64,000 bases of DNA from Escherichia phage KIT03, in the sequence record AP018932. The stretch is one strand, 5' to 3'. Within the stretch, counting starts at the first letter, position 1. Every line of letters starts with the position of its first letter. Positions 15,832-61,969 of the stretch are shown in pieces. The notes under the pieces were generated by a model that saw only the letters and a list, made by a program, of their open reading frames with translations, was not told the DNA's origin and did no database searches. The translations under genes were made by a program, and so were the position numbers.

Positions 15832-16796
15832 TGTATTCTTTAGAGGAATTTAATAATCAAGCAATAAACGCAGACTTCCAACGTAATAATATGTTCAGCT
15901 GTGTTTTTGCTACAACTCCATCAACTAAAAGCTCATCGTTAATAAGCTCAATTAGTAACTTTGCTTATAATAACTTGGGTCTAAATTCAGATTGGTTGGG
16001 ATTAACTCAAGGTGATATTAATCAGGGAATTACCACGCTAATTACCGCTGGAACACAAAAACTAATAAGAAAATCGGGAGTCAGTAAATATCTTATTGGC
16101 GCTATGAGTCAGCGTACTGTCCAGAGTTTATTAGGCTCATTTACAGTTGGTACATATTTAATTGACTTCTTTAACATGGCATATAACTCATCTGGATTGA
16201 TGATATATTCTGTAAAAATGCCAGAAAATAGATTATCTTATGAAACTGACTGGAACTATAACTCTCCTAATATTCGTATAACTGGAAGAGAATTAGACCC
16301 TTTGGTTATTTCATTCAGAATGGATTCAGAAGCTTGTAACTATCGTGCAATGCAAGACTGGGTTAACGCTGTTCAAGACCCAGTAACTGGATTGCGTGCT
16401 TTACCGCAAGATGTCGAGGCAGATATTCAGGTTAATCTTCATTCTCGCAACGGATTACCACATACTGCGGTGATGTTCACTGGCTGCATTCCAACATCTG
16501 TGAGTGCTCCTGAGTTATCGTATGATGGAGATAACCAAATAACTACATTTGATGTTACTTTCGCTTATAGAGTCATGCAGGCTGGAGCAGTTGATAGACA
16601 AGCTGCCCTTGAATGGCTTGAATCTGCTACTATAAATGGTATTCAAAGCGTTCTCGGAAATAGTGGAGGTGTTACTGGACTATCTAATTCGCTTTCACGA
16701 CTTAGTAGATTAGGGGGAACTGCAGGAAGCATTTCAAATATTAATACTATGACAGGAATTGTCAATTCGCAGAGTAAAATATTAGGAGCAATATAA
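15831..16796 (+). CDS. 54: baseplate tail-tube initiator gp54
   Basis: 321-aa ORF. Confidence 0.93.
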   Translation: MYSLEEFNNQAINADFQRNNMFSCVFATTPSTKSSSLISSISNFAYNNLGLNSDWLGLTQGDINQGITTLITAGTQKLIRKSGVSKYLIGAMSQRTVQSLLGSFTVGTYLIDFFNMAYNSSGLMIYSVKMPENRLSYETDWNYNSPNIRITGRELDPLVISFRMDSEACNYRAMQDWVNAVQDPVTGLRALPQDVEADIQVNLHSRNGLPHTAVMFTGCIPTSVSAPELSYDGDNQITTFDVTFAYRVMQAGAVDRQAALEWLESATINGIQSVLGNSGGVTGLSNSLSRLSRLGGTAGSISNINTMTGIVNSQSKILGAI

Positions 16797-16800
16797 CAAT

Positions 16801-16830
16801 GGGGACCGAAAGGTCCCCATATTTTTATTT
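16801..16830. terminator. bidirectional hairpin terminator after gene 54
   Basis: GGGGACC-GAAA-GGTCCCC flanked by T-runs on both strands. Confidence 0.65.
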
Positions 16831-17115
16831 ACGGAATGAAATAAAAGCAGCAACTGAAGCAACAGAGGTTTCTTCAATATAAACCTCAATTTTTACCGGA
16901 GCTTCTGACTCAAATTTACCTGTTACTACACCTTGGAAAATACTTTCAGTCTGTTCTGGCTTTGAAAAATTTTCAGAAGGAAAAATTCCAAACTTTTTAT
17001 CGGTTCCGAAAATTTTAATAAATTCATCATAAACTGCTTCATTGAAAGCGTTATCAGCGGGAATAACGCCTTCAACGACGAGTTCTTGACCTAAAAAGCG
17101 CAAAGAAGATTTCAT
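16825..17115 (-). CDS. hypothetical protein upstream of alt region
   Basis: 96-aa ORF with GAGGA RBS immediately downstream of an early promoter. Confidence 0.7.
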   Translation of the reverse strand: MKSSLRFLGQELVVEGVIPADNAFNEAVYDEFIKIFGTDKKFGIFPSENFSKPEQTESIFQGVVTGKFESEAPVKIEVYIEETSVASVAAFISFRK

Positions 17116-17146
17116 TTTGTGTTCCTCATGTTATGTCAGTAAAACT

Positions 17147-17176
17147 ACTATAACACAATACGAGGGACTTGTAAAC
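17147..17176 (-). promoter_or_regulatory. T4-type early promoter (-35 GTTTAC, 18 bp spacer, -10 TATAGT)
   Basis: gtaaac at 17171..17176 and actata at 17147..17152 on the + strand. Confidence 0.6.
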
Positions 17177-19233
17177 TACATTTTGAACTTTTTAGACATT
17201 CCGTTGATGTTAACCAAAGAAGCTAAGATTTGAGAAACTTCGTTTTCCTCTTCTTTTGATTCTTCTACAAGGAATTGATTAAATCCAGCCATTGGACGAA
17301 CTTCACCAGTTTCCATCAGATGGTCGCCATCATATACTGATTCTTCTAATTGTTCAGAAGGAGGAACGATTGTACCTTCGATTAGATACTTGTTATAAGC
17401 AGTTTCTTTCATCATGTACGTACTTACTTTATTAATCTTCAGTAAAATTCCACGCGGCAAAATAACTTCAGCTTCTGATGGAAATCCTGATAAATGACCC
17501 GGAACGATAACTTTGATTCGCTCAGCTCCTTTAATTACCATACCCACGCTAGTTTCAGCATCTTCATTAGCATATGTAGAATGACTACCCATATGCATCA
17601 AATCTTCTGCATCAACAGAACCTTCTCCTTCGCCAGAAAATACTGCACCGGAATCATCTAGAGCCATATAGTTTTTACCATGCTCACCGAAGATATTTGG
17701 TTTAAGTGATGTCGATACGAAGTTCTTGAAATAGAACATTTTATTTTCAATATTGTGACGCAAAGTTTTAAAGGTAACTTCTTGTCCACGGTAAAGTGTA
17801 GTTCCTGGAGGAAGAACTGAACCTTTAGCGAATGCAGAATCCAGCGTCTCAATATGTTTAATAGCTCGTTCCATATATTCTTCACGGGTAGAATCTGGTT
17901 TACCCAAAAGGAACGAGTTCATTTCAACATATGAATCTGCGCAATAATCTTCAATTACGTCAGATTCAGCCTGAGTTAATCCTTTTGGAGTTACTTCAGT
18001 ACTTGCATATTCATATGCCTGAGCGGCAGATTCATTAATCAATTTATAAATGCCATTCATGACAAATTGAATAATAGCTGTCTTTTCATCTGGCGTAGCT
18101 TTAGAACCTTTAACTAAATCATTGATAATTTTCTTAATAACATCAAAGCTATTAGAAATATTAATGTCAGCAAGATCGCTTAAAATTTTATCAGTTTTAT
18201 AATCAAAGAATTCTTTATTCTTTAAATATTCTTGAGAACCTTGATATGTTATATCGCTCTGCAACTTGATAGATGGATCACGTAAACGTGCATGGGCTAA
18301 TGCAATATGATTTCGGAAGTTTTCTAGTTCATAATCGCTAGATTTAAAACGAGAAGCGCTCCTCATACCACCGATAGCTCCTTTGTTGAAGTTTGAACCA
18401 ATCTGAATAACGCCAGAGTTCATTGGTCCTTCTGCTTTATATACCGGAACTTTAGATTCAAACTCTTGATATTTCTTAGCAGCGAAGCTATCACCCTGAA
18501 GTGAAGCATCAACAGTAGAATATTGAGCTTGTGCTGCTAATCGACGACTAATTTTAGTTTTCTGAATAACAGCTTGATCCGTGCGCTTATCATTTTCTAA
18601 GGCAATAGAAGCAGCAACAGCAACAGCTTTAGGAACAGCATTACCTGTTTTAACGTCTACATAAACATCACCAACCTTTGATTCAACTTTTGTGAATAAC
18701 TCAGTTGAAATAGGAGGTACACCTGGAATGTCTTCTAAATTGGCATTTTTACGGTAAACCATAATATATGCATATTTCTTATCATAGTCCCAGATTTCCT
18801 TTAAAAGAACATATCGGCCTGCTCCTTTAGTACGTACTAAACGGTCAGCAATAACTTGCATTTGACGAGCAGCGCCATTTGTTTTACTCTTTAGTACGCG
18901 GAATAAGCATGCATCAATTTTATACTGTTTCATTGTTTGAAGAGCAGTATCAAAAACAGCATTAATGACGCCAATTGGATTTCCACCCAAGTTTCTAAGC
19001 TTAACCAGCGATAATTTCTCGTTGACACCTATCATTACGATATGCATCATTTTATCGCCTGGCTTAACGTTTTTATTTGTATCACCACCAGAGGTGTATG
19101 TACAAAATCTAAATCCAGGAAGCACGCTTTCTTCACCGGCTTGGATAGCAAAAATTTGTGGTATTTTATGCTTAGGATTTAAGTTAACAACCGGCGCCGA
19201 AGCGCCGTCAAATAATTCTGTAATAAGTTCCAT
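17176..19233 (-). CDS. Alt-like ADP-ribosyltransferase paralog (intact, 685 aa)
   Basis: shares N-terminal MELITELFD...CTYTSGGDTN capsid-targeting region with Alt and a C-terminal ART domain carrying R (LYRG), STS (FVSTSL) and E (EAEVILPRG) motifs. Confidence 0.85.
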   Translation of the reverse strand: MELITELFDGASAPVVNLNPKHKIPQIFAIQAGEESVLPGFRFCTYTSGGDTNKNVKPGDKMMHIVMIGVNEKLSLVKLRNLGGNPIGVINAVFDTALQTMKQYKIDACLFRVLKSKTNGAARQMQVIADRLVRTKGAGRYVLLKEIWDYDKKYAYIMVYRKNANLEDIPGVPPISTELFTKVESKVGDVYVDVKTGNAVPKAVAVAASIALENDKRTDQAVIQKTKISRRLAAQAQYSTVDASLQGDSFAAKKYQEFESKVPVYKAEGPMNSGVIQIGSNFNKGAIGGMRSASRFKSSDYELENFRNHIALAHARLRDPSIKLQSDITYQGSQEYLKNKEFFDYKTDKILSDLADINISNSFDVIKKIINDLVKGSKATPDEKTAIIQFVMNGIYKLINESAAQAYEYASTEVTPKGLTQAESDVIEDYCADSYVEMNSFLLGKPDSTREEYMERAIKHIETLDSAFAKGSVLPPGTTLYRGQEVTFKTLRHNIENKMFYFKNFVSTSLKPNIFGEHGKNYMALDDSGAVFSGEGEGSVDAEDLMHMGSHSTYANEDAETSVGMVIKGAERIKVIVPGHLSGFPSEAEVILPRGILLKINKVSTYMMKETAYNKYLIEGTIVPPSEQLEESVYDGDHLMETGEVRPMAGFNQFLVEESKEEENEVSQILASLVNINGMSKKFKM

Positions 19234-19236
19234 GAT

Positions 19237-21330
19237 TTATCCTTGAACGAACTTGTAAGGCATGTTTGTAATATCTATGCAAGACGCAATAATTCCAAGA
19301 GATGATTCTACTTTCTGTTTAACATTTGATGAAACAAATGATGCAAAGTCAACTTTGTCTTCTATTTCAATATCACCTGTCATTGCAACCAATTCACCAG
19401 TTTCCATTAAATGGTCTCCATCATAGATTACCGATTCGGTGAGCTCTTCCGTGGTCATAACTTCAGCTTGAATGAGTTTTGTATTATTAGATGTTGTTCC
19501 GTCATTATTAGAAGCATCAGTTATTTTATTAACCTTGACCATCAATCCGCGTGGTAGAATAACTTCAGCTTCTGTTGCTATTCCGAGACTTCCTGGATAT
19601 ACAACATTAACTTTATGAGCTCCATCAATTGCCCATCCTATTTGAACTTTAACATATTCAGGATTTTCTTTATACGCTCTTATTTCGTTTGGATTAATAG
19701 TTATTCCTTCTTCATTTTTATCAACTGTTAATTCATTGCGAGCTTCTGGTTCTAAAAGACCAATACCAGCATGTGTGATTCCAAAACGTCCAAAAATGAT
19801 AGGAGTTAAAGAAGTAGATACAAAATTTCTGAAGTAGAACACTTTATTTTTAACTAACGCTTCATATATAGGAGCAGTCATACTTTGAGCACGATAAACT
19901 GTAATGCCTTCTGGTATACGGTCACCATTTTCAAAAGCTGAATCTAAGTTATTTATAGCAGATTCAATTTCTTTTTCACTCATTACATCGTATCGTTCTG
20001 GATTGTAACGACCTAAAAGAAGATTATTGATGTCAGTATATCCTGAACCGCAATATTCTCTAATGCCACGCTTTTGTGATGGAGTATATTTAGAACCATC
20101 GCGGGCAATAGTAATATCAATCATTGGACCAGCACCAATTCCAGAAAAACTGTAAATCATTCGTTTGAGGAATTTAGTTTTTGCTGCGTTCCAGGAATTT
20201 TTAGTTATTTCTTCCCAGACTTCATCTGGTTGTCCTTTACGATTTTTATTATGATTAGCAAGCCATTTATCTTTATAATCTTCAAAGAATTGATTTACAG
20301 CTGCTGCGTATTTCTCTAAACATTTTATTGAAGTAGTTGGTTCATTTTTAATTGCATTAAAAATTACTTCTTTAATTTTTTCTGAAACTTCACCGACTTG
20401 ACTCATTGGAAAGAATTTATAATCATAGTGAAGTTCATCTGCCGTTCCTTCAGCAATAATTTTTGCTGCCTTTGTTTTAGAAGCTAATGAATTAATTCCA
20501 ATTTTCATTTCTTCTGCTTCGGGAATTAAAGGTGCAGTAGCTGGTTTATTAAAATTGGCTGCTGTAGATTCATACTTCTGGAATAATTCACTTTCAAATC
20601 TAGAAGATTCCAATGACTGACTTTGTGCAATTGCTCTACGGGAAATTTTAACTTTAACGATTACAGCTTGATCAGAACGTTTATCGTTTTCTTGCGCAAT
20701 AGATGCTGCAATTGCCTCATTTTTAGTTACTTGAGCTCCGGTATCTTTATTGATATAAACATCGCCGACCTTCGATTCAACTTTAGTAAAGAGCTCTGTA
20801 CTAATTTCCGGAACTCCTGGAATGTCTTCTAGTGATACATTTTTGCGATGTATAAGAATATATGCGTACTTTTTATCATAATCCCAGAGTTCCTTAAGAA
20901 GGACGTATCTGCCACCTGAACGACTACGGATAAGTCTATCAGCAATAAGTTGAATTTGACGAGCTTGACCAGCAGTTTTAGACTTAAGAATACGGAGCAT
21001 GCAGGCATCAATTTTATACTGACGCATCGTCTGCATCGCAACAGTAAAAACTGAATTGATGTAATTAATTGGGCTTGGACCGAGACCTTTTAATTTAGCA
21101 ATTGAACCTTTAGCAGTTAATGTAAAAGGAACAATATGCATCATTTTATCGCCCATCTTTAAATCGCGATTAGTATCACCTCCAGATGTATAGGTACATA
21201 AACGAAAGCCTGGTTGTTCAATTGCGTCATCAACATGAACTGAAAAAATTTGCGGTATTTTCTTCTTTGGATTTAAGTTTGTAATCGGAAGAGTAGTATC
21301 TTCGTCAAATAATTCTGTAATGAGTTCCAT
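19237..21330 (-). CDS. alt: internal head ADP-ribosyltransferase Alt
   Basis: 697/698-aa ORF recognised as T4 Alt; R-STS-E catalytic motifs present. Confidence 0.92.
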   Translation of the reverse strand: MELITELFDEDTTLPITNLNPKKKIPQIFSVHVDDAIEQPGFRLCTYTSGGDTNRDLKMGDKMMHIVPFTLTAKGSIAKLKGLGPSPINYINSVFTVAMQTMRQYKIDACMLRILKSKTAGQARQIQLIADRLIRSRSGGRYVLLKELWDYDKKYAYILIHRKNVSLEDIPGVPEISTELFTKVESKVGDVYINKDTGAQVTKNEAIAASIAQENDKRSDQAVIVKVKISRRAIAQSQSLESSRFESELFQKYESTAANFNKPATAPLIPEAEEMKIGINSLASKTKAAKIIAEGTADELHYDYKFFPMSQVGEVSEKIKEVIFNAIKNEPTTSIKCLEKYAAAVNQFFEDYKDKWLANHNKNRKGQPDEVWEEITKNSWNAAKTKFLKRMIYSFSGIGAGPMIDITIARDGSKYTPSQKRGIREYCGSGYTDINNLLLGRYNPERYDVMSEKEIESAINNLDSAFENGDRIPEGITVYRAQSMTAPIYEALVKNKVFYFRNFVSTSLTPIIFGRFGITHAGIGLLEPEARNELTVDKNEEGITINPNEIRAYKENPEYVKVQIGWAIDGAHKVNVVYPGSLGIATEAEVILPRGLMVKVNKITDASNNDGTTSNNTKLIQAEVMTTEELTESVIYDGDHLMETGELVAMTGDIEIEDKVDFASFVSSNVKQKVESSLGIIASCIDITNMPYKFVQG

Positions 21331-21361
21331 CATATCCTCTCTAGTGTTTATTCTATTTATA

Positions 21362-21381
21362 AAATTAAAGGCCCGAAGGCC
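21362..21381 (-). terminator. hairpin terminator (AGGCC-UUCG-GGCCU) between ligase operon and alt
   Basis: GC stem with UUCG loop then UUUAAUUUU on the - strand. Confidence 0.6.
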
Positions 21382-21382
21382 T

Positions 21383-21571
21383 TTAATAATCTATTGGTAA
21401 GAGAGTACGATATATTTCAAACTTTGGACCTTTTTCATAAGCATCAAAAGTTTCTGTGAATTTATTATAAGCATATGCATCTATAAATTCAATCATGATT
21501 TGTGATACAGAAGTAGAAACATCTCCACCTTCTTTTTGAGCCACGACAATTGTTTCTAAGTAAGCTTTCAT
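21383..21571 (-). CDS. hypothetical small protein
   Basis: 62-aa ORF, start overlaps DNA ligase stop. Confidence 0.6.
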   Translation of the reverse strand: MKAYLETIVVAQKEGGDVSTSVSQIMIEFIDAYAYNKFTETFDAYEKGPKFEIYRTLLPIDY

Positions 21572-23031
21572 AAACCAGTTACCTCATGAAAATCACCAAA
21601 TACATCCTCGAATGTATTAGCTTTAGTTTTATCTTCACGCAAACGAATCGCAATTGGAAGAAATAATTTAACGTAATCAGTGCGGCCATCGGATTTTAAC
21701 CAACCGTTGCATTCGCACTCTAGAATTTTTCCAATATAATAATTTTGGTTTTCCATAATGCGAGTACGGTCAAGTTCATGTGATTTTACTCCGGCTTTAT
21801 CTTTTAAGCCTGAACCGGCATTTACCTTAATTTTTCCACACTCTGACTCAAGAATAAATCCACCTGCTTTAGTAGGGTCTTTACGGTGAGGATAAATTCC
21901 TACAATTTTTAAATCAACATCAATTACTTCTTTAAATTTATAGAGATTTTTTGAACGAGCATTTTCCCATAATCCATCGATATTTTTGAGAATAATACCT
22001 TCAAGACCTTGGTCAATATACTTTTTATAAATTACCTTAGCTTCATCTAGGTTATTTACTACTTGGTTTTCAATTAAAATTACTTTATCATATCCTGATG
22101 TCATTTGTTCTAATTTAGAAAAACGTACATCATATTTTAAACGAAATGCTGGAAGACCGTATATTTCTACCAACGGAACATAATCCCAGACCTGAAACTT
22201 CATGCATTGAGCTTCTTTTTCTGAAATAGTTCCCTTTAAAGATTTATTAGCGATTCCATTAGAAGTAGTACGTGATTCAGCTACTTCAGCAAACTCTTTA
22301 GCTTTACTAATTTCAGGATAAGCATCAAAAAGAAAATCTAGGCCTTCTGGCTCCTTTTTAACTTGCTCATGGTATACCAATTCGCCATCAATTAACACAC
22401 CTTCTGGATGAATCTGGCGGGCTTCAGCGGTCATTTTGATTAACTCTTCCTTAAGAAGATCTAATCCTAGATATTCATTACCAGCTCGTGATAAAAGACG
22501 GACATCATCTAATTCATCACCTCTAACTTCAGCAAAACACCGAGCTCCATCTGCTTTTAATTGTGCAAAGGCTGGAAATTTGATATTCTTACTAATGCCT
22601 TTTTCATCATAAGAACTTGCGAGCATTTGAGGTTGTTCAGGAATTAAACTTGGCCAAACTTTGTTTGCAATAGATACTGAAGCACCACATTCAAGGTCTC
22701 GCATCATCACTCGACGCAAAACTTCAACATCATCTTTTTTACCATCGGTGATATATCCAGATAATTCCTCAATTGCCGCATTTCCGGTCAATTTCCGAGT
22801 AGCTAACGTGAATTCAATGAAGTCAAGCATATCGGTAAGAGTCAACATTCCAAAACTCTGGGTAGCAATACCAGATTTAGGCCATTTCTTGATATAATAC
22901 TGCAACCCACGAGAATAAGTCAGACGATATACTCGTTTAAGCAATTCATTATCTTTATTCTTTTCAAGAATTGCTTGCTTCTGCTTAGTTGAACCAATAG
23001 ATGCTATTTCGTTCAGAATTTTAAGAATCAT
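21568..23031 (-). CDS. 30: ATP-dependent DNA ligase gp30
   Basis: 487-aa ORF recognised as T4 DNA ligase; adenylation lysine motif (KADGAR) present. Confidence 0.97.
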   Translation of the reverse strand: MILKILNEIASIGSTKQKQAILEKNKDNELLKRVYRLTYSRGLQYYIKKWPKSGIATQSFGMLTLTDMLDFIEFTLATRKLTGNAAIEELSGYITDGKKDDVEVLRRVMMRDLECGASVSIANKVWPSLIPEQPQMLASSYDEKGISKNIKFPAFAQLKADGARCFAEVRGDELDDVRLLSRAGNEYLGLDLLKEELIKMTAEARQIHPEGVLIDGELVYHEQVKKEPEGLDFLFDAYPEISKAKEFAEVAESRTTSNGIANKSLKGTISEKEAQCMKFQVWDYVPLVEIYGLPAFRLKYDVRFSKLEQMTSGYDKVILIENQVVNNLDEAKVIYKKYIDQGLEGIILKNIDGLWENARSKNLYKFKEVIDVDLKIVGIYPHRKDPTKAGGFILESECGKIKVNAGSGLKDKAGVKSHELDRTRIMENQNYYIGKILECECNGWLKSDGRTDYVKLFLPIAIRLREDKTKANTFEDVFGDFHEVTGL

Positions 23032-23297
23032 TGTTCATCCTTTAGAGTTTGGTTTACAGCTCTATTATAAATCAATTCATCATTAAGCTCAGTCAAAGAC
23101 CTATGGTACGTGGTTCTAACTTTATTTCCTTGCATCCAGTGTTTGACGTAAATGAAACCTTGCTCTACACATTTTTTAAAAATTCGTTCGTCTTTTTGAG
23201 CTCGGAATTCTGGATTGCATCTAAAAAATTGATTTACGTGACCGTAATCACGTGTAGTATTACCTTCATTTTCATAAATAGTGTGAACAACAAACAT
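23028..23297 (-). CDS. 30.1: hypothetical protein
   Basis: 89-aa ORF, translationally coupled. Confidence 0.7.
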   Translation of the reverse strand: MFVVHTIYENEGNTTRDYGHVNQFFRCNPEFRAQKDERIFKKCVEQGFIYVKHWMQGNKVRTTYHRSLTELNDELIYNRAVNQTLKDEQ

Positions 23298-24136
23298 TAG
23301 AATGCTCCTTGGAAAATATTATCACCACTAGTAGGTCTATTATACAAATACTCTATGCCACCAGGTTTAATATAGTTCCATGTCTGAAACGGATGTGTCT
23401 GATATGGATGATATGGATGATTATAAGGATTAAATCCAGGAGTTCTCCAGGTAGTGTTCCAACGAAAAGAATCATTTTTAATCATCTTTTCAATTACATC
23501 TTTTATAGCTTTTTCACTATCAAAACTTTCTTTATTTTCCTTTGGTGAAAAAAGCTTATTCTCTACATCGTTCCATGTATAAACTCGCTGAGCGGTTTTT
23601 GGAATACTGTCACGTTCCCCTCGAGCCATCCAATACACAGGAACACGTAATATTTCACTCGCATGATCGCAATGGTGAGCGAGATCGTCAATATAACAAA
23701 TTACGTTATATTTCTCTTTTGCCTTTTTGAACAACTCTTCTTTTGAAGAATCATGACCACACATCAATACTTCTGAGAAAGCACCAGGAAAAAGAGCATT
23801 CAAATTAAATTGACGATTCAACAGAGCGTCAATAGAATCACCCAATGCTGTAACAGCTACAAAATTATAATCTTCTTTTAATTTGTTAATTACACACAGT
23901 GCATCTTTATATGGAGACAAATAACGAATAAAATCTGATCGATTATATTTTTCAATTAACTTGACACCAAGTTCTTCATCACAATTAAAGAGTTTACCCG
24001 GAGAAATAAATTTCTCATCTTGGATCATTTTTAAAATATGTTCTAACGGAAGATTATATTTCTGAGCAAAATAAGGAAGGCCTGATTGCCAGCTTAAACA
24101 TACCCCGTCAATATCAGTCAAAATAGTAGGCTTCAT
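23297..24136 (-). CDS. 30.2: HAD-superfamily hydrolase-like protein
   Basis: 279-aa ORF; N-terminal DIDGV motif (HAD motif I) and later YIDD; Pro/His/Tyr-rich C-terminus. Confidence 0.75.
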   Translation of the reverse strand: MKPTILTDIDGVCLSWQSGLPYFAQKYNLPLEHILKMIQDEKFISPGKLFNCDEELGVKLIEKYNRSDFIRYLSPYKDALCVINKLKEDYNFVAVTALGDSIDALLNRQFNLNALFPGAFSEVLMCGHDSSKEELFKKAKEKYNVICYIDDLAHHCDHASEILRVPVYWMARGERDSIPKTAQRVYTWNDVENKLFSPKENKESFDSEKAIKDVIEKMIKNDSFRWNTTWRTPGFNPYNHPYHPYQTHPFQTWNYIKPGGIEYLYNRPTSGDNIFQGAF

Positions 24137-24597
24137 AGAGAGTCTCTTAATAGGTTTAACACATCAATAAATTCAGCTTCGGTTAGTATTGTATCATCTT
24201 TTGTTAGACCACTAGCCATGCTGTGCTTCAAAACTTTTCCTTTCGAGGCTAGTAATGCATTACGAAAGCCCTTGTTTTGAATCGCTGCTTCAAAATATGC
24301 ATTTGTGTATAATTCTTTCCACGCCGGGGAGTATCTTGAAAACGGAACTCCGAGCCAGAAGAGGGTCCCACGGTCCTGAGCTCTTGCATAAGACCTTCCA
24401 GCTTGTTGGGCGGCAAGCCCGGATAACCCAAATATACGACGCTGTTGTTCAACATTTTTCACCTTACATCCTTGGAGGAATCCTTCGAGACCTCCAAATT
24501 GGATACCATCCATAACAAAAGGCCATTGGGCGAAATTACTTAATGCACATGATGGCCATCTAAAATTGCTTCTTATCTCTAACTCAGACATTTTCAA
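24133..24597 (-). CDS. 30.3: NADAR/YbiA-like (DUF1768-like) protein
   Basis: 154-aa ORF; LSNF...GGLEGFLQGCK pattern resembles the NADAR family; assignment from memory. Confidence 0.65.
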   Translation of the reverse strand: MKMSELEIRSNFRWPSCALSNFAQWPFVMDGIQFGGLEGFLQGCKVKNVEQQRRIFGLSGLAAQQAGRSYARAQDRGTLFWLGVPFSRYSPAWKELYTNAYFEAAIQNKGFRNALLASKGKVLKHSMASGLTKDDTILTEAEFIDVLNLLRDSL

Positions 24598-24790
24598 TAC
24601 TTATAATTTCAACATCAGCCCAATGACCATAGCAAGGAAGACGAAATTCAACTGGCCAGTTAGGGTCCTTTTCTAATATAATAGACTGAACTTGTGGCTC
24701 TTCATGTTCATCGGTATACGGACCTTTATACGTTACTTTATATGTAACCTTAATGTACTGAATTCCAAAAATCTTATTAATTATATTCAT
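24584..24790 (-). CDS. 30.3': hypothetical protein
   Basis: 68-aa ORF. Confidence 0.6.
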   Translation of the reverse strand: MNIINKIFGIQYIKVTYKVTYKGPYTDEHEEPQVQSIILEKDPNWPVEFRLPCYGHWADVEIISIENV

Positions 24791-24984
24791 ATTAATTCCT
24801 TTAATCCATAGATAGGAGATAATTCATCACCCATACGAAGGTCTTCATTTCCATCTACCCAGGAAACAATATAAGCCTCTTTTATTTGAATACCACTCCA
24901 TTTAAATGGAGGTAGAACCTTAGAAATTAATCCAGGTATACCAACTCCCTTTAATTCAACAGTTTGACCCAAAAAGAATTTCAT
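24787..24984 (-). CDS. 30.4: hypothetical protein
   Basis: 65-aa ORF. Confidence 0.6.
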   Translation of the reverse strand: MKFFLGQTVELKGVGIPGLISKVLPPFKWSGIQIKEAYIVSWVDGNEDLRMGDELSPIYGLKELI

Positions 24985-25271
24985 TAGAACCTCATCTGAA
25001 AACCATGCGATTTAACATTACCGCCGCCAATATCAGAAATGTTAATTTCACGCGCAATTGAAGGGTCAATGTCAATTTCACGATTGAGTTTAGTGATAGC
25101 TAAAGTATCACGCCCATTTACTGTACGGAATTCTAAAGGACAAACCACATCAACGTAATTTTTAATCGATTCACTGGTAGGTTGCAAATGAGCAGGAAGG
25201 CCTTTGGGCGCCTTTGAGAAAACCACTTCACAGAAATTTTTGCGGGTGTCAAAATAAGTAGTCATAAACAT
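24984..25271 (-). CDS. 30.5: hypothetical protein
   Basis: 95-aa ORF with GAGG RBS just downstream of a CUUCGG hairpin. Confidence 0.65.
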   Translation of the reverse strand: MFMTTYFDTRKNFCEVVFSKAPKGLPAHLQPTSESIKNYVDVVCPLEFRTVNGRDTLAITKLNREIDIDPSIAREINISDIGGGNVKSHGFQMRF

Positions 25272-25312
25272 AATATTTTCCTCAGTAAGGGGCCGAAGCC
25301 CCTCATTTATTT

Positions 25313-25690
25313 TTAAATATCAAATTCGTTAAGAACTACATCAAAGATTGCTTCAAGATGCTCAGGTTTAGCTCTGTTACTCAGAATATGACGAATCCAA
25401 GTTTTAACCAAAAGCTTACGATTATCACCATTCCAGCAAGGATGAGTCCCTAAATCGCGTTGACGAAAATCATCATCCAGAGCGATTTTGAAGTTAGAAC
25501 CTTCCATTGTGATTGAAACCGTGATGCCATTTTCAAATCGCATATAAACGTAGTTAGGAGTCATATACTGTTCAATTTCGCATACTGATCCATTTTGATG
25601 TTTCCAAAGGCAAATAGTATCAATAGAACCTGCAATACTATTAGAAACATATTTACGTTCAAAGTTGATGTAGTTCATTTTATTCTCCAA
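25313..25690 (-). CDS. 30.6: hypothetical protein
   Basis: 125-aa ORF. Confidence 0.65.
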   Translation of the reverse strand: MENKMNYINFERKYVSNSIAGSIDTICLWKHQNGSVCEIEQYMTPNYVYMRFENGITVSITMEGSNFKIALDDDFRQRDLGTHPCWNGDNRKLLVKTWIRHILSNRAKPEHLEAIFDVVLNEFDI

Positions 25691-25745
25691 GATGTTTAAT
25701 TGCGGTACAGGTATATAATATCATATCCTGTACCAAAGTAAACAA

Positions 25746-26078
25746 TTATTTTACTACTTTCCAATGCTGCATGTCAAGTTTACCAACTTTTTTCATCTTC
25801 TCAATTAAGCGTTCTGCACGTTGACGAGCTGTAACATAATGCCATTCACCTAATTCATTTTGTTCAATTTTTCCAACGATTACTGTATTCAATTCATAAA
25901 TCCAACCAGTAAAGAAATTATGAACTTGAATAGTAAAGGTGAAATCTGTTCCCATACCTTCTGCTGTTTCTACTTCAATAATATCACCTTCAACTGCCAT
26001 TAAGAACCACATAGTTTCATCATATTTACCATTGAAGCATTTAGTTTTAACTGCAGCGTTCAGATTAATCGTTTTCAT
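25746..26078 (-). CDS. 30.7: hypothetical protein
   Basis: 110-aa ORF downstream of an early-promoter-like element. Confidence 0.65.
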   Translation of the reverse strand: MKTINLNAAVKTKCFNGKYDETMWFLMAVEGDIIEVETAEGMGTDFTFTIQVHNFFTGWIYELNTVIVGKIEQNELGEWHYVTARQRAERLIEKMKKVGKLDMQHWKVVK

Positions 26079-26187
26079 TTTATTCTCCTTTGTTTGTGTA
26101 AGATAATACTATCACAAAGGAGCTTACTGTAAACAACTTTATGCAATCTTTGGAAAATAAAAAAGGACTCCCGAAGGAGTCCTCAAC

Positions 26188-26364
26188 TTATGCTTTCTGC
26201 TTACCAAAACGAGAAGCATCATCTCGAAGAACCGCACGTGCTCGGCGCATGATCTTCTCAACAGTTTGATTGATACGAGAGTTCGACCCACGCTTGTAGC
26301 CAGCGCGTTTAGAATCACCAACTTTCTTTTCAACTGCTTTCTTTGCTTTAACTTGTTTTGCCAT
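26188..26364 (-). CDS. 30.8: small highly basic protein
   Basis: likely start MAKQVKAKK with AAGAG RBS (tracked ORF extends to 26406); Lys/Arg-rich. Confidence 0.55.
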   Translation of the reverse strand: MAKQVKAKKAVEKKVGDSKRAGYKRGSNSRINQTVEKIMRRARAVLRDDASRFGKQKA

Positions 26365-26609
26365 TATAAATTCTCTTTTAAATGAAAATGCAGGACTTAT
26401 TGGCATTGCCTGCGCAAGCCCTCAAGGGGAACATAGGTTTTTGGATATTTAACGACCAGGATAACCATAAACCCGTCATCATTCACATTCAAGAGGTACA
26501 CCGTAAAACTGCCGGGGTCTTAAAACTATAATGATTCGCAAATCATTAATCAGACAGTTCGACGGCTCCTCGATTTTAGCTCACACTAAGGCAGTGAATC
26601 TCCAATAAA

Positions 26610-26858
26610 TTACTTCAATGTTACCACAAAGTGACGAACTGCTTTTCGTGCAGCAGAAGCCAAAGGCTTAGCATATTTAAGTTCATCTTTTTCCTGAAGC
26701 TCAGCAGCTAGTGCAGTTTGAGCAGGATTCAGATGTTTGAAATAACGCAGGATTTCAAGAGCTTCGGCTTCAACATCAATAGATGCGCCATAGTTTTCGT
26801 GACCATTATTCCATGCGTTTCGTTGCAGTTCAAGAGCGTGTTGTAATTGTTTAATCAT
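26610..26858 (-). CDS. rIII: lysis inhibition accessory protein rIII
   Basis: 82-aa ORF recognised as rIII. Confidence 0.9.
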   Translation of the reverse strand: MIKQLQHALELQRNAWNNGHENYGASIDVEAEALEILRYFKHLNPAQTALAAELQEKDELKYAKPLASAARKAVRHFVVTLK

Positions 26859-27005
26859 TTAAAAATTCTCGTTAGAGATTAAAACTCGGTAGTCACGTTC
26901 TTCTGAATTTCATCTTCTTTCGACAGATCTCTCAGTTGTAGACTACCACATAGAATTGTTCGGTTAACTTATTATTCCGACACCCAATTCATATTATTAT
27001 TTATA

Positions 27006-27341
27006 TCACTTATAAAGACACGGAATAGCTTTATAGTGACAAGTAACGAATTTTTGTTTAATTTCTTTTGGCTGCTTAAGACCCAGAGCTACAAAAGGAT
27101 GCGGAACATTTCGAATTTGACCAACTGGAAGAGAAGTCAAATCACCAACTTCGCAGAAACCTTCAGGAACATCAGGACCAACAGAGTGAACTACACACAG
27201 TTCAGGAACTTCACCTTGAGCACGTTTACCGATAATAAGTCCTGATTCTGTAACTTCTTCATCACCGGCTTGTGCAGGTTCAGAAACTAAAATAACATAT
27301 TCACCGACAGCACGAATTGGTAGCTGTTGTACTTCAGACAT
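27006..27341 (-). CDS. 31: co-chaperonin gp31 (GroES analogue)
   Basis: 111-aa ORF recognised as gp31. Confidence 0.93.
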
Positions 27342-27397
27342 CGTTTTTCCTTTTTGTTAACAGATGAATTAATAATAACAAATAATTCTTAAAGCAT

Positions 27398-27706
27398 TTA
27401 TTTACCAATAAATTGGAGTAAATGCTCAACTTTCATACCATTAACAGAAATCAATTTGTCAATAGAAAAACCTCGCCACTCGCCAAGCTCAACATCAAAT
27501 ACTGGAATCATGCCAGTAGATTCTTTCCGAGTAGATTCAGTCAATTTACCGGTTTGCATGGTTGGCATAAAGTCTGCATCACGAGTACCTTTCATAGTAC
27601 GAATAGTACCATCAGACTTTTCAAAAACCACGTTTGAAATACCCATGGACAATTTAGTTTTCAAAATTTCACGAATTGCTACTTTCTGTTCAGTTGTCAG
27701 TTTCAT
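27398..27706 (-). CDS. 31.1: hypothetical protein
   Basis: 102-aa ORF. Confidence 0.65.
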   Translation of the reverse strand: MKLTTEQKVAIREILKTKLSMGISNVVFEKSDGTIRTMKGTRDADFMPTMQTGKLTESTRKESTGMIPVFDVELGEWRGFSIDKLISVNGMKVEHLLQFIGK

Positions 27707-27943
27707 TTATTTACCTATTACAGTTTTAATATGAGTTGTTCCACGTTCTTTAAGAGTGGAAAGCAACTTTTGGCATTTTTCTAAATCAGATTTCCAACTA
27801 TACGGCCTATCAATACAAACCCATTCTGACTTATAATACTGTTTCCATTTAGAGAAAAAATATTTCTTATACTCTACAGCAAATGAAATGTTCTCGTTAG
27901 AATAAGAACTAATTGCTGTGAGCTGTACCAAACGAAATTTCAT
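27707..27943 (-). CDS. 31.2: hypothetical protein
   Basis: 78-aa ORF. Confidence 0.6.
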   Translation of the reverse strand: MKFRLVQLTAISSYSNENISFAVEYKKYFFSKWKQYYKSEWVCIDRPYSWKSDLEKCQKLLSTLKERGTTHIKTVIGK

Positions 27944-28524
27944 TATTCACCACAGAATTCGTTGATATTTTCCCAGTTTAACTTATTCAAGTTTTTCTTA
28001 GGAACATTAAACACTTCAATACCTGCATTTCGCAGAATATCATCCCAGCCAGGTTTATTTTTATCGTATGTTTCACAATAAACCAACTTTTTAATTCCAG
28101 ATTGAGCTATCGCTTTTGCACAATCTGGGCAAGGAGAAAGTGTTACATACATAGTAGCACCTTCAATAGAAGAACCATTTCGTGCAGCAAACAAAATTGC
28201 ATTTAGTTCAGCATGAATTTCATTTTTAGACGACCATTCAGAGTGAGCGCTCCGGTGTTCTTTTGCCAAGATAAAACGATCAGTTGAACCAAATGATACA
28301 CATTCGGGCTTATGACCTTGGATGATAGTATGTTTAGGTTTATTCAGCAACCAACCTTGCTCGGCGGCATAATCACAACAGTTCACACCACCAGCAGGTG
28401 AACCATTATATCCGGTAGAAATAATACGTCCATTCTTTTCAATTACTGCTCCTACCTTCCAGGAGCAACATTTTGATTCTTGTGATACTAAATATGCAAT
28501 TTGAAGTACTGTACTCGCTTTCAT
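27943..28524 (-). CDS. cd: dCMP deaminase
   Basis: 193-aa ORF with cytidine/deoxycytidylate deaminase zinc motifs (HAE...PCPDC). Confidence 0.95.
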   Translation of the reverse strand: MKASTVLQIAYLVSQESKCCSWKVGAVIEKNGRIISTGYNGSPAGGVNCCDYAAEQGWLLNKPKHTIIQGHKPECVSFGSTDRFILAKEHRSAHSEWSSKNEIHAELNAILFAARNGSSIEGATMYVTLSPCPDCAKAIAQSGIKKLVYCETYDKNKPGWDDILRNAGIEVFNVPKKNLNKLNWENINEFCGE

Positions 28525-28859
28525 TTCATAATCACCAGATAAGCAGATTTAGCAGTTTCAACACGATAAATTTCGTGACGAAGTTTAGTTATACTTTTAA
28601 TAACAGAACTAATTATATTCTGCCCATCTTTAAAGCGGTTTTTCTTATCAATAAAAATTGCGCCAACCATCTTTTTGTGAAGCTCAACTGGATACTTCGT
28701 CACAATAATAGCATCATATACGGAAGGATGAATACTATTCACCAGAGTGTCATTCATTAAAGTTATTCTAATGAACTGAGCTGTTTCAGAGTCAAGCGCT
28801 CTATGATCGCCAGTATCATTTTCAAGACAATTATCAATTATATCAGTTAAATTCATCAT
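28521..28859 (-). CDS. cd.1: hypothetical protein
   Basis: 112-aa ORF. Confidence 0.65.
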   Translation of the reverse strand: MMNLTDIIDNCLENDTGDHRALDSETAQFIRITLMNDTLVNSIHPSVYDAIIVTKYPVELHKKMVGAIFIDKKNRFKDGQNIISSVIKSITKLRHEIYRVETAKSAYLVIMK

Positions 28860-29095
28860 AGTACGCCATACACCCTTTGTGCTTCAACTAATCCATCAAA
28901 ATCCAATTTGAGATGTGTTATTTGATCACCATCACCTGGATTCACAATTACTAATACTGAACGAGGAGTTTCGGTAATAACACGAACCGATGTTTCAGGA
29001 AATCGTTCAGAAACCTTATTTACCAATTCCTGGGCAAATAGTTTAACTTTTTCTTGGAATTCTTTAACAGTAATCGGTTTTTCACTTAGCAGCAT
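28856..29095 (-). CDS. cd.2: hypothetical protein
   Basis: 79-aa ORF downstream of an early-promoter-like element. Confidence 0.65.
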   Translation of the reverse strand: MLLSEKPITVKEFQEKVKLFAQELVNKVSERFPETSVRVITETPRSVLVIVNPGDGDQITHLKLDFDGLVEAQRVYGVL

Positions 29096-29156
29096 TTTGT
29101 TTTCCTCATTTGTTTGGTAGAGCTATAATATCACAACTCTACCGTAAAGTAAACTA

Positions 29157-29432
29157 TTAAATTGCTTTGAATTCTGCTGTCTGCGATTCAAAGCGAATGT
29201 CGCCTTTAATAACTAACTCAGCATCAAGACCGAATACGACAATGATATGCGCGGAACCTGGATACAGCGTAATGGCAACAGAATCCACCTGGTCTGGAAG
29301 CAAAGTGTTCAATACATGAGTCACTTGAGCATGGATTCGAAGCTCGGCTGCGTTATCAAGCTTTTCAAACATGTTATTAGCGATAATTTGACTAAACACT
29401 ACTTCTACGATTTTAGAATAAGTCGGAAACAT
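29157..29432 (-). CDS. cd.3: hypothetical protein
   Basis: 91-aa ORF. Confidence 0.65.
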   Translation of the reverse strand: MFPTYSKIVEVVFSQIIANNMFEKLDNAAELRIHAQVTHVLNTLLPDQVDSVAITLYPGSAHIIVVFGLDAELVIKGDIRFESQTAEFKAI

Positions 29433-29434
29433 AT

Positions 29435-29635
29435 TTACCTCACATAATTTTCTTCAAGCCAATCAATAACATCCAACGCATTATCAAAAGTTGAACCATC
29501 TACTTTGTCTTCTGTTTCATAATCAAGAACATCTAAACCTACTCTTCCATCAACAATAGGCCATAAACAAAATAGATATTTCTTTTCTTTTTCAATTTTA
29601 TCACAAAGACGATAAATCTTTTCTAGGTTATTCAT
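29435..29635 (-). CDS. cd.4: hypothetical protein
   Basis: 66-aa ORF. Confidence 0.6.
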   Translation of the reverse strand: MNNLEKIYRLCDKIEKEKKYLFCLWPIVDGRVGLDVLDYETEDKVDGSTFDNALDVIDWLEENYVR

Positions 29636-29824
29636 AAGTTTTCCATGGTAAAGGCAGTTTAGTTTTCTTTACTGTTAGTTCAATATCAGGATTCTTTTCT
29701 CTTAATTTAAGGCATTCCTCCCAAGCTCTGATTTCACTAGTGAAAACACAAAATTGACCATTACTAGTACCAACTAAACCGCTATTTACAATAACAATAG
29801 CCCAAGTTTCATGATGCAAAGCCA

Positions 29825-29825
<1 letters not shown>
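29628..29825 (-). CDS. cd.5: hypothetical protein
   Basis: 65-aa ORF; start overlaps the terminal stop of the pseT C-terminal reading frame. Confidence 0.6.
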
Positions 29826-31029
<1,204 letters not shown>

Positions 31030-31033
<4 letters not shown>

Positions 31034-31260
31034 TTATTTTTCTCAACCAATGATTGAATATAATCATGCAGGTCTTTAGATGCTTTACCCCACTTATTTT
31101 GATATTCATTTTTGAGATTAGCGCGTGATTGAGCTAATAAAACATCATTAGTTGGAGGTAAAGATTCTAATCGTTGAATCTGTCGTCCATAAATCATTGC
31201 AGCCATCTCGGATTCATAAATTAATCCTTTTAGATGTTCAAATTGATACCATGAAATCAT
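31030..31260 (-). CDS. pseT.2: hypothetical protein
   Basis: 76-aa ORF. Confidence 0.6.
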
Positions 31261-31556
31261 TTACATTTATCCTCTTTTAGCTCTTGACGATAATAACATA
31301 TCATAGTTTTCTGGTCATGTACATATCGTTTTACATCATTAAGCCAAATACGAAATTCCTGGGAATCTTCAAATGGCATACCGACCCAAGCTTTACCATC
31401 AATAACTTTAACTTGCCAAGATAGTTTAGCTTCATCATATGACTTTATTTGTACAGGCCAATTAGGATGAACTGCTTCTTTCTTTACTTCTAGAGGCTTT
31501 GTCGAACAACCAACTAGAAGACCAATAGATAATATTACTGCTGATAGTTTAATCAT
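31257..31556 (-). CDS. pseT.3: predicted lipoprotein
   Basis: 99-aa ORF; N-terminal signal peptide with lipobox LLVGC. Confidence 0.65.
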   Translation of the reverse strand: MIKLSAVILSIGLLVGCSTKPLEVKKEAVHPNWPVQIKSYDEAKLSWQVKVIDGKAWVGMPFEDSQEFRIWLNDVKRYVHDQKTMICYYRQELKEDKCK

Positions 31557-31906
31557 TTAGAAAGGTCCTGGATGTCTTCTGCGAACTTGTTGAAGGAGTT
31601 GTTGATTTGTTTTTCAACCAATCCTGGCTTATGAGCCACCACATCCGCCTTCTTTGCGTCTTTGCGCAGTTTTTCATTTTCACGCTCAATAGCAGCAATT
31701 GCCTCACGATTTTTATTATTCATCGCATCAATATAATTATACTGAATTCGCAAATTATTTAATGCTAAAGCGTTTTCATTGGCCGTTTTTGTAATTTCTA
31801 CAACAGACGTTTCTAATCTTTCAATTTTATTTTTTAAAATTAAAGAAGTTCCGCCCAATGCAATTACAATTAATAGCAAACCTGTTGTCGTATTACTTAA
31901 TTGCAT
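31553..31906 (-). CDS. membrane-anchored coiled-coil protein
   Basis: 117-aa ORF; N-terminal hydrophobic helix (LLLIVIALGGTSLIL) followed by charged coiled-coil-like region. Confidence 0.6.
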   Translation of the reverse strand: MQLSNTTTGLLLIVIALGGTSLILKNKIERLETSVVEITKTANENALALNNLRIQYNYIDAMNNKNREAIAAIERENEKLRKDAKKADVVAHKPGLVEKQINNSFNKFAEDIQDLSK

Positions 31907-32400
31907 AAAGTTTTAATAACCTCTATAATATCGTCTTGAGAAAGACCGTTAATTAAAATATGATGTTCAGCTGGAGATTTAGAAATTTTAAAGCATGCCT
32001 CAACATCTTCTGCCATATCCGATGCACTACGATTTGGATTACTAATACCAAGGCGGTGTTTTCCCGTCAAAGGATTAACGATGATATAGCATTTACAGCT
32101 ATTGATATGAACATTAGGTTGAGTCTGATTAATGAACACTTCACAATCATACTTAGCGAGTTGATTTTCTAAAAAGACTTTCATCTCCTCAACCGCATCA
32201 GGAAGCATATCACGGGCTTGCTCAAGACGACGATTTCGATATTCTTTAATGGTCGTTTTCCGCTTGACTTGTTTAGCTAAATCTTTCTTAAGATCAGTGA
32301 TATATCCAACTCGACGATTTCCTTTGAATACAGAAATCCCATCTGTAGTATCACCGTATGCTTCAACGACCATTTCAGTAGTAATAAGTTGTAAATCCAT
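31897..32400 (-). CDS. alc: Alc, host transcription elongation inhibitor
   Basis: 167/168-aa ORF recognised as Alc, immediately downstream of an early promoter. Confidence 0.85.
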   Translation of the reverse strand: MDLQLITTEMVVEAYGDTTDGISVFKGNRRVGYITDLKKDLAKQVKRKTTIKEYRNRRLEQARDMLPDAVEEMKVFLENQLAKYDCEVFINQTQPNVHINSCKCYIIVNPLTGKHRLGISNPNRSASDMAEDVEACFKISKSPAEHHILINGLSQDDIIEVIKTLCN

Positions 32401-32431
32401 CATAAAGTCCTCATGTTATGTCAGTAAGATT

Positions 32432-32461
32432 ACTGTAACACAACACGAGGGACTTGTAAAC
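32432..32461 (-). promoter_or_regulatory. T4-type early promoter (GTTTAC, 18 bp spacer, TACAGT) for alc
   Basis: near-identical copy of the element at 17147..17176. Confidence 0.6.
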
Positions 32462-32464
32462 AGC

Positions 32465-34052
<1,588 letters not shown>

Positions 34053-41541: not shown

Positions 41542-41563
41542 CAGCAGTATTGCCGATAGTTGT

Positions 41564-41593
41564 ATAGTACCATAAAGCTTTATGCTTGTAAAC
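41564..41593 (-). promoter_or_regulatory. T4-type early promoter (GTTTAC, 18 bp spacer, TACTAT) with A/T-rich upstream element
   Basis: gtaaac at 41588..41593 and atagta at 41564..41569; module repeated at 58271..58300 and 61924..61953. Confidence 0.6.
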
Positions 41594-41604
41594 CGTTTTG
41601 TGAA

Positions 41605-41644
41605 AAAATTTTTGAAATAAAAAAGGGGACCTCTAGGGTCCCCA
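41605..41644 (-). terminator. hairpin terminator downstream of gene 32
   Basis: GGGGACC-CUAG-GGUCCCC then UUUUUUAUUU on the - strand. Confidence 0.65.
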
Positions 41645-58229: not shown

Positions 58230-58270
58230 TTTCTAATCTCCGTAATTCTGTATCAGTAGTTGATAGTTGT

Positions 58271-58300
58271 ATAGTACCACAGTATGCTTTGGTTGTAAAC
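58271..58300 (-). promoter_or_regulatory. T4-type early promoter for motA (GTTTAC, 18 bp spacer, TACTAT)
   Basis: gtaaac at 58295..58300 and atagta at 58271..58276. Confidence 0.6.
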
Positions 58301-58315
58301 CGTTTTGTGAAAAAA

Positions 58316-58354
58316 TTTTTGAAATAAAAAAAGGGGAGAGCCGAGGCTCTCCCC
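58316..58354 (-). terminator. hairpin terminator upstream of motA promoter
   Basis: GGGGAGAGCC...GGCTCTCCCC stem followed by U-rich tract on the - strand. Confidence 0.6.
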
Positions 58355-61895: not shown

Positions 61896-61923
61896 TTTCC
61901 GCTCCTCCGTAGTTGATAGTTGT

Positions 61924-61953
61924 ATAGTACCACGATCCTTGTGGTATGTAAAC
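61924..61953 (-). promoter_or_regulatory. T4-type early promoter (GTTTAC, 18 bp spacer, TACTAT)
   Basis: third copy of the gatagttgtatagtacca...gtaaaccgttttgtgaaaa module. Confidence 0.55.
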
Positions 61954-61969
61954 CGTTTTGTGAAAATTT

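Follow-up and report, generated by a model that had tools for sequence, protein, structure and literature searches.

A duplicated early-promoter cassette with a predicted Shine-Dalgarno-masking hairpin upstream of alt.-3 and alc in Escherichia phage KIT03

Introduction

The genomes of T4-like phages carry repeated promoter-early stem-loop (PeSL) cassettes, which are described as substrates for recombination and have been documented in the T4/PST pair (PMC2839356, PMC4122927). Here we describe a 54-nt element that occurs twice on the minus strand of a 64,000-nt stretch of DNA from Escherichia phage KIT03 (AP018932; the whole stretch is referred to as the window, with positions counted from its first base), once in front of alt.-3 and once in front of alc. 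Each copy combines an early promoter with a predicted RNA hairpin over the Shine-Dalgarno sequence of the downstream gene, and the pair is best filed as a further example of the PeSL type. Like the published cassettes, the KIT03 copies are compact units running from a stop codon to a start codon; each comprises an early promoter of the sigma-70 type, a stem-loop that overlaps its -10 element or spacer, a Shine-Dalgarno sequence and an ATG, and they are repeated within the genome, as proposed substrates for homologous exchange. The promoter form given for T4/PST, TTTACW-N17-TAYWAT, nearly fits, although TATAGT and TACAGT depart from it at the fifth base. However, the published stem-loops have been read as terminators or attenuators, and translation is not discussed in PMC2839356, whereas in KIT03 the 3' arm is the Shine-Dalgarno region and no U tract follows. 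In addition, the PST/T4 stems are short and lie upstream of the promoter, whereas the KIT03 stem is 19-22 bp long and spans it, and the genes next to the KIT03 copies are conserved ones, separated by 15.3 kb, and not clustered variable open reading frames (ORFs).

A second point of comparison is provided by the T4 genes e, soc, 49 and I-TevI, in which sequestration of the Shine-Dalgarno sequence is relieved by a promoter within the hairpin (PMC3014915). In these genes upstream transcripts hide the Shine-Dalgarno sequence, and a promoter in the DNA of the 5' arm gives translatable RNA lacking that arm; the same arrangement is predicted here. Because the promoter embedded in the KIT03 cassettes is of the early sigma-70 type and not a late one, the cassettes are analogous to this group but not members of it: the T4 genes use late promoters (TATAAATA, gp55) and are translated late only, whereas translation from the cassettes would be restricted to the earliest phase.

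The T4 early promoters themselves are UP/-35/TGn/-10 promoters with extra conserved positions, the "uber" class (PMC2988021). The KIT03 pair has the features of this class, i.e., GTTTAC at -36 to -31, a 17-nt spacer, TGn and TAnnnT. The class consensus leaves the spacer and leader free, whereas the two KIT03 copies share both almost completely, and the UP-element region of each copy lies inside the upstream coding sequence and is not shared.

Results

Pairwise alignment of the two loci matched 50 of 54 positions, between 17123-17176 (copy 1) and 32408-32461 (copy 2), both on the minus strand, and the similarity broke off abruptly at both edges of the block. A repeat search of the window returned a two-copy family of 54 nt with 93% identity and a spacing of 15,285 nt. 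An earlier reading of the sequence alone (the sequence-only reading) had described a near-identical module of about 58 bp duplicated upstream of two unrelated genes. The duplication was borne out, although the repeated block is exactly 54 nt long and its left ends had been placed at 17117 and 32407, i.e., 6 nt and 1 nt from their true positions. The remainder of that description was correct, including the minus-strand order GTTTAC, 18 nt, TA(T/C)AGT, GAGGA and ATG, which is seen in both copies, and the lack of relationship between the downstream genes, whose products gave no BLASTP alignment to each other and belong to different Pfam families (DUF5498 for alt.-3 and ALC for alc). The consensus of the block on the minus strand is GTTTACAAGTCCCTCGTGTTGTGTTATAGTAGTCTTACTGACATAACATGAGGA, from which each window copy differs at two positions, so that the two differ from each other at four.

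Copy 1, which opens with the G of GTTTAC and closes with the A of GAGGA, lies between the stop codon of alt.-2 and alt.-3 (16825-17115, minus strand, 96 amino acids); its first base, G17176, is also the last base of the TAG stop codon of alt.-2, and its last base lies 7 nt before the alt.-3 ATG. Copy 2 lies between the stop codon of rnlA (32465-32467) and alc (31897-32400, minus strand, 167 amino acids from the start annotated in T4), beginning 3 nt past the former and ending 7 nt before the T4-annotated alc ATG; an in-frame ATG (32401-32403) is present 3 nt upstream of that start. The upstream stop codons are thus 0 and 3 nt from the module, and GAGGA precedes the annotated ATG by 7 nt at both loci.

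The ends of the homology coincide with the generic GTTTAC and GAGGA blocks, and the likeness between these extends well past the general T4 early-promoter consensus. When the 12 early-promoter-like sites in the window (GTTTAC-N17-TAnnnT) were compared in 66 pairs, the 17-nt spacers of the alt.-3/alc pair were 94% identical, against a median of 41% and a runner-up at 65%. A 31-nt degenerate pattern taken from the block matched twice in the window and never in 100 shuffles. The block is therefore a strongly non-random cassette of early promoter and hairpin, and it is duplicated genus-wide: the window belongs to the genus Tequatrovirus (T4-like phages), and in BLAST searches nearly every Tequatrovirus record matched, among about 500 sequenced genomes, contained it at two places.

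Both copies contain the -35 element TTTACA (17170-17175 and 32455-32460), preceded by a G at -36 that completes GTTTAC, a 17-nt spacer, TG at -15/-14, and a -10 element that is TATAGT for alt.-3 and TACAGT for alc. The extended -10 elements, with TGT before the hexamer, occupy 17147-17155 and 32432-32440; most other genomes have TATAGT at alc as well. The hexamers match at 10 of 12 positions with TATAGT and at 9 of 12 with TACAGT, and a 25-nt leader containing the Shine-Dalgarno sequence GAGGA follows each promoter. Thus the T4-type early promoter form, GTTTAC(A/T) with a spacer of 17 +/-1 nt and TAnnnT, was found at both loci, as was the extended -10 TGn motif. By hand count, the 26 nt upstream of the -35 element are 73% (alt.-3) and 65% (alc) A+T; this is coding sequence and is not shared between the copies. 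The GenBank record of phage SA21RB annotates the site, computationally, as a T4-type early promoter.

T4 has the same module at both loci, so published T4 data are applicable. In T4, alt.-3 and alc are classed as early both as RNA and as protein, alt.-1 and alt.-2 as middle RNA, and rnlA as early RNA and late protein (PMC9697503 supplement). In a motA-amber infection, RNA levels relative to wild type were 2.38-fold for alt.-3, 1.61-fold for alc and 0.68-fold for rnlA (PMC6024815), and arithmetic on the read means from the same study shows that alt.-3 RNA per nucleotide exceeded alt.-2 RNA by a factor of 1.6-3.4 under each of the six conditions. The results are compatible with MotA-independent promoters immediately before alt.-3 and alc, as judged from T4 RNA levels and classes rather than from start-site maps; a literature search found no genome-wide T4 start-site dataset. 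Taken with the promoter form and the SA21RB annotation, the T4 early classes and the RNA shifts in the motA-amber infection support the description of the module as an early promoter with its leader.

The sequence-only reading had overlooked that each block is a long imperfect inverted repeat that is predicted to fold as an RNA hairpin. The 5' arm consists of the promoter spacer and most of the -10 element (module positions 10-31), and the 3' arm of the leader and GAGGA (positions 36-54); the predicted helix has 19-22 bp, with three G-U pairs and one bulged C. For alc in the window (32405-32455, minus strand) the minimum free energy was -28.6 kcal/mol with a z-score of -5.8, the alc-specific bases CUU lengthening the stem. 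For alt.-3 (17121-17168, minus strand) it was -16.8 kcal/mol (z-score -2.3) in the window, compared with -23.0 kcal/mol (z-score -4.2) in T4; the consensus also gave about -23 kcal/mol. As in PeSL cassettes, the helix of spacer, -10 element and leader therefore constitutes a stem-loop at or overlapping an early promoter, with z-scores from -2.3 to -5.8. The GAGGA of alt.-3 (17123-17127) is paired in the predicted hairpin and that of alc (32408-32412) is fully paired. The proposal of a shared extended signal held in part, the signal being a predicted RNA hairpin in which the spacer of the promoter pairs with the Shine-Dalgarno region.

The symmetry of the block is centered on the region of the -10 element and the start and is common to both promoters, as might be expected of a DNA operator through which a dimeric phage or host protein coregulated them. 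However, with three G-U pairs and a bulged base the block is a poor DNA palindrome. A DNA-level inverted-repeat search of the window did not report the helix at the cassettes, alc included, because G-T pairs and the bulge hide it from such a search, and the sense RNA folded better than the antisense RNA by 6-12 kcal/mol (-27.3 versus -15.4 and -23.0 versus -17.2 kcal/mol) because of the G-U pairs. Moreover, natural C-to-T changes at positions 11 and 15 retain G-U pairs in RNA and would break the symmetry of the DNA. These findings suggest that the feature belongs to the RNA of the transcribed strand and is not a DNA operator, which we consider very unlikely.

By the sigma-70 position rule, i.e., 7 nt past the -10 element, transcription is predicted to start at A17140 for alt.-3 and A32425 for alc, both on the minus strand. 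This usual start is the first base of the 3' arm, so that a transcript from the embedded promoter would lack the 5' arm entirely. Opening GAGGA was predicted to cost 0.8-1.0 kcal/mol in promoter-initiated RNA, compared with 9.2-10.5 kcal/mol in RNA carrying 60 nt of upstream sequence. By prediction, the Shine-Dalgarno sequence is therefore paired in upstream-initiated RNA and free in promoter-proximal RNA.

The stem-loop might instead serve mainly to terminate or attenuate transcription by RNA polymerase coming from the upstream gene, with the embedded promoter restarting transcription, which is the role proposed by the PeSL authors. In their reporter assay, a PeSL stem-loop of RB49/phi1 reduced downstream lacZ to roughly the extent seen with rrnB T1, a strong terminator. 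In T4, rnlA and alc RNA vary independently, with a per-nucleotide ratio ranging from 0.6 to 6.5 across conditions (arithmetic on PMC6024815), and CUUUAU follows the alc hairpin. However, an intrinsic-terminator scan found nothing at either cassette, neither hairpin is followed by a U tract, and the alt.-3 hairpin is followed by ACACAAAA, which lacks a U run. Instead of a short, G+C-rich stem there is a long, bulged helix with many A-U and G-U pairs, and a terminator would leave unexplained why the 3' arm is exactly the Shine-Dalgarno region. We therefore regard a mainly terminating role as unlikely.

A bulged, intergenic helix of about 20 bp in read-through RNA could also be a processing site, e.g., for RNase III, or a stabilizer of 3' ends, with cleavage detaching the message of the upstream gene and freeing the Shine-Dalgarno sequence; the early RNase III sites of phage T7 offer a parallel for such cleavage. 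However, we found no processing data, RNase III processing at these T4 sites is not mentioned in the literature searched, and an Rfam scan of 16000-34000 at E<=1 gave no match at either cassette. A role of this kind seems highly improbable.

Cleavage by RegB was considered and rejected by inspection, the leader having no GGAG. The leader showed no obvious resemblance to the A+U-rich RegA SELEX consensus, in a comparison that was not a formal one. An AUG inside CAUGAGGA (17113-17130 and 32401-32415, minus strand) opens a mini-ORF of 4-5 codons whose UGA overlaps the downstream AUG: at alt.-3 it reads AUG AGG AAC ACA AAA UGA and overlaps the alt.-3 start, and at alc it reads AUG AGG ACU UUA UGA and overlaps the in-frame AUG 3 nt upstream of the annotated start. 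The arrangement recurs at alt.-3 of Mosigvirus and Gaprivervirus. Having no Shine-Dalgarno sequence of its own, the mini-ORF is probably incidental.

Hairpins joining the spacer to the Shine-Dalgarno sequence were also found at two non-homologous early promoters on the minus strand of the window, with -10 elements at 26111 and 61423. At the first, which precedes a gene starting at 26078, CUCCUUUGUG pairs with CACAAACAAAGGAG, and the predicted promoter-dependent unmasking was 10.8 kcal/mol; at the second, UUCCUC pairs with GAGGAA in a helix of -26.5 kcal/mol (z-score -4.0). Unmasking of at least 5 kcal/mol was predicted for 3 of 11 genes with early promoters and for 5 of 72 control genes, the largest value, 17 kcal/mol, being that of alc. 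On these predictions, masking of the Shine-Dalgarno sequence by the spacer is the design of a subset of promoters, with alc its strongest case. Five gene starts without an early promoter (minus strand 21330, alt, and 10506; plus strand 10557, 27422 and 54019) were predicted to have a Shine-Dalgarno sequence and AUG whose opening costs 5-8 kcal/mol more once 90 nt of upstream RNA is included, and these are possible further cases of structure-controlled or promoter-in-hairpin translation.

The window also contains a second repeated family of minus-strand early promoters, 74 nt long, at 41555-41628, 58262-58335 and 61915-61988, with 86% and 68% identity to the reference copy. Its members share a terminator tail, the UP region, the -35 element and a block from -10 to +10, and differ in their spacers; the two closest copies are identical across the 26 nt compared upstream of the -35 element.

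Variation in the cassette was examined in 44 copies from about 25 genomes, comprising 23 distinct 54-mers; most variants came from GenBank phage records, scans of IMG/VR and metagenomes adding only about 20 copies. Nucleotide diversity (pi) was 0 in the -35 element, 0.008-0.010 in the 3' arm (leader and Shine-Dalgarno sequence), 0.043-0.080 in the 5' arm and 0.06-0.10 at unpaired positions, compared with 0-0.006 at flanking codon positions 1 and 2 and 0.057-0.109 at flanking codon position 3. Many of the natural changes in the 5' arm preserve pairing (C11T, C15T, G16A and T27C), as do G40A, C42T and A46G in the 3' arm, with pair 27-40 occurring as U-G, C-G and U-A; other changes break it (G18A, G29A, G16T, T17C and G50A). 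Standard pairs filled 97% of the pair cells of the 23 variants, and between three and five of the five Shine-Dalgarno bases were paired in every one of them. Mean destabilization was +1.9 kcal/mol for the observed variants and +3.1 kcal/mol for random substitutions. As modeled, the helix is thermodynamically strong, strand-specific and retained in every variant, although covariation does not prove selection for it.

The 19-nt transcribed arm UACUGACAUAACAUGAGGA (positions 36-54; 17123-17141 and 32408-32426) had a pi of about 0.01. Eleven of its positions could undergo transitions without loss of a pair, yet it is almost invariant, which suggests a sequence-specific role of the mRNA 5' end beyond pairing.

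The alc-copy and alt.-3-copy consensus sequences were the same, with no fixed differences between the loci, and mean divergence between the paralogues (0.035) was close to the diversity within each (0.026 and 0.039). The two copies of a genome differed at no position in Sf22 and in one IMG/VR genome, at one in T4 and at four in the window. A three-site haplotype, T11/T15/A16, was carried at alt.-3 by ECML-134, IME340 and one IMG/VR contig, but at alc by ph0021, whose alt.-3 copy has the consensus sequence. The single consensus, the lack of fixed differences and the shared haplotype argue that the copies arose from a common source no earlier than the base of the sampled radiation and have probably undergone ectopic exchange, with the caveat that assembly error at a 54-bp repeat may have contributed. 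The suggestion that the module is a recombination-dispersed cassette held to this extent, in agreement with the PeSL concept, with the single consensus and with the haplotype common to both loci.

In sister genera, i.e., at alc and alt.-3 of Mosigvirus and at alt.-3 of Gaprivervirus, early promoters were present and the Tequatrovirus module was absent. Orthologous sites compared across genera had an identity of 0.63-0.67, whereas the alc and alt.-3 sites of one genus had an identity of 0.91 (Tequatrovirus) or 0.78 (Mosigvirus). In another genus, the module was most closely related to the promoter of a third unrelated gene, ndd.1 of Mosigvirus (L016 1485-1546 and L017 1501-1561), which has almost the same sequence between the -10 element and the ATG (TATAGTAGTCCTACTGAAACATGAGGAACACAAAATG) but a different spacer, and whose hairpin spans the -10 element only. 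Because this nearest relative fronts a different gene, promoter-leader cassettes seem, from sequence comparison, to move between loci, as the PeSL papers proposed. Between rnlA and alc, the Gaprivervirus EAWsc9 (L079 1075-1308) has an extra ORF of 77 amino acids whose translation resembles the Alc N-terminus by eye, and it is this ORF, and not alc, that has a terminator-like hairpin and a promoter-like sequence in front of it.

The copies could be a neutral legacy of recent duplication or gene conversion, their identity reflecting recent ancestry and the hairpin being incidental. The lack of fixed differences between paralogues, the roughly synonymous rate at which the 5' arm and loop evolve, the non-significant covariation and the absence of the module from sister genera are as such a legacy would have them. 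However, chance is unlikely to yield a helix of 19-22 bp whose z-scores are -4 to -6, the helix is strand-specific, and the predicted start coincides exactly with the boundary of the loop. Constraint on the leader arm equals that on non-synonymous sites, the stem is lengthened by three bases specific to alc, and analogous helices from spacer to Shine-Dalgarno sequence occur at non-homologous early promoters. We thus judge a purely neutral origin to be improbable.

A 3-kb piece of the window around the cassette was 97.9% identical to phage RB18 and matched 498 phage records. Upstream of copy 1, alt.-3 adjoins the variable alt.-1/alt.-2 region, where genes that are truncated in T4 are full-length in the window. 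Here two tandem genes for full-length Alt-like ADP-ribosyltransferases lie on the minus strand at 17176-19233 (685 amino acids) and 19237-21333 (698 amino acids), about 71-80% identical in DNA blocks with a spacing of about 2094 nt; alt.-2 of KIT03 is the 685-amino-acid Alt paralogue. T4 has only truncated alt.-1 and alt.-2 remnants at this locus, so the region varies within the genus. A bidirectional intrinsic terminator (16799-16820), the sole hit of the intrinsic-terminator scan, with a 9-bp stem containing six G-C pairs, separates late gene 54 on the plus strand from alt.-3 on the minus strand.

Discussion

The explanation that we favor, with a probability of roughly 0.6, is that the element is a PeSL-type cassette in which an early promoter is combined with a hairpin that masks the Shine-Dalgarno sequence, its two copies having a common origin. 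In read-through RNA from alt.-2 or rnlA both arms would be present, and the 19-22 bp hairpin would bury the Shine-Dalgarno sequence, so that alt.-3 or alc would be poorly translated from it. RNA from the embedded promoter would begin at the boundary of loop and 3' arm without the 5' arm, leaving the ribosome-binding site open. Because the site would be masked in the one RNA and open in the other, Alt.-3 and Alc would be made only from transcripts of their own early promoters and only in the first minutes of infection, so that the late-only switch of T4 e, soc, 49 and I-TevI would have an early-only mirror image here. As to origin, one locus would, within the Tequatrovirus lineage, be a copy of the other or have been overwritten by it, and the copies are probably kept alike by purifying selection on the leader together with occasional ectopic gene conversion.

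Several observations weigh against this explanation. The 5' arm changes about as fast as third codon positions in the flanking genes, strong constraint being limited to the leader, so that some of the conservation past the hexamers may reflect recent common ancestry rather than selection for pairing. The natural variants G18A, G29A and G50A weaken the stem, and the alt.-3 copy of the window itself has the second-weakest stem among the 23 variants. Covariation across these variants was not significant, with no double-sided compensation and with column shuffles matching the scores; divergence within the genus is too low for the helix to be testable in this way. The Mosigvirus alc and Gaprivervirus alt.-3 sites, when folded, gave no hairpin over the Shine-Dalgarno sequence. 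A general unmasking at all early promoters of the window was rejected, the medians being equal to those of the controls (Mann-Whitney p 0.28-0.37). Finally, base 1 of the module is part of the alt.-2 stop codon, and a ribosome that terminates there would be expected to melt the lowest pairs of the stem, which hold part of GAGGA. If so, the hairpin might mediate translational coupling on polycistronic RNA rather than full silencing.

A more far-reaching proposal would be an early-only translational switch operating in a subset of T4 early genes, i.e., at alc, where it would be strongest, at alt.-3, at the gene starting at 26078 and at the gene of the promoter at 61423; the hairpin around each early promoter would mask the Shine-Dalgarno sequence in all transcripts other than those of that promoter, with the alc and alt.-3 cassettes kept identical over 15 kb by ectopic gene conversion. 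We put this forward tentatively, since taken as a whole we think it rather doubtful. If such a switch exists, synthesis of these proteins would stop when the early promoters are shut off, despite the persistence of read-through RNA.

Because transcription of the host's cytosine-containing DNA in T4 infection is stopped by Alc, host takeover is affected by when this protein is made. A hairpin working as predicted would provide a simple, protein-free means of confining the synthesis of Alc and Alt.-3 to the immediate-early period, and would extend the classic promoter-in-hairpin logic of T4 from late to early genes. The practical value is modest, and because T4 itself has the same sequence, the sites are easily tested. 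In addition, the pair illustrates cleanly, in a natural setting, how one regulatory cassette can be present at two unrelated loci and apparently be homogenized, and as such it bears on promoter shuffling in T4-like genomes, as envisaged by the PeSL hypothesis.

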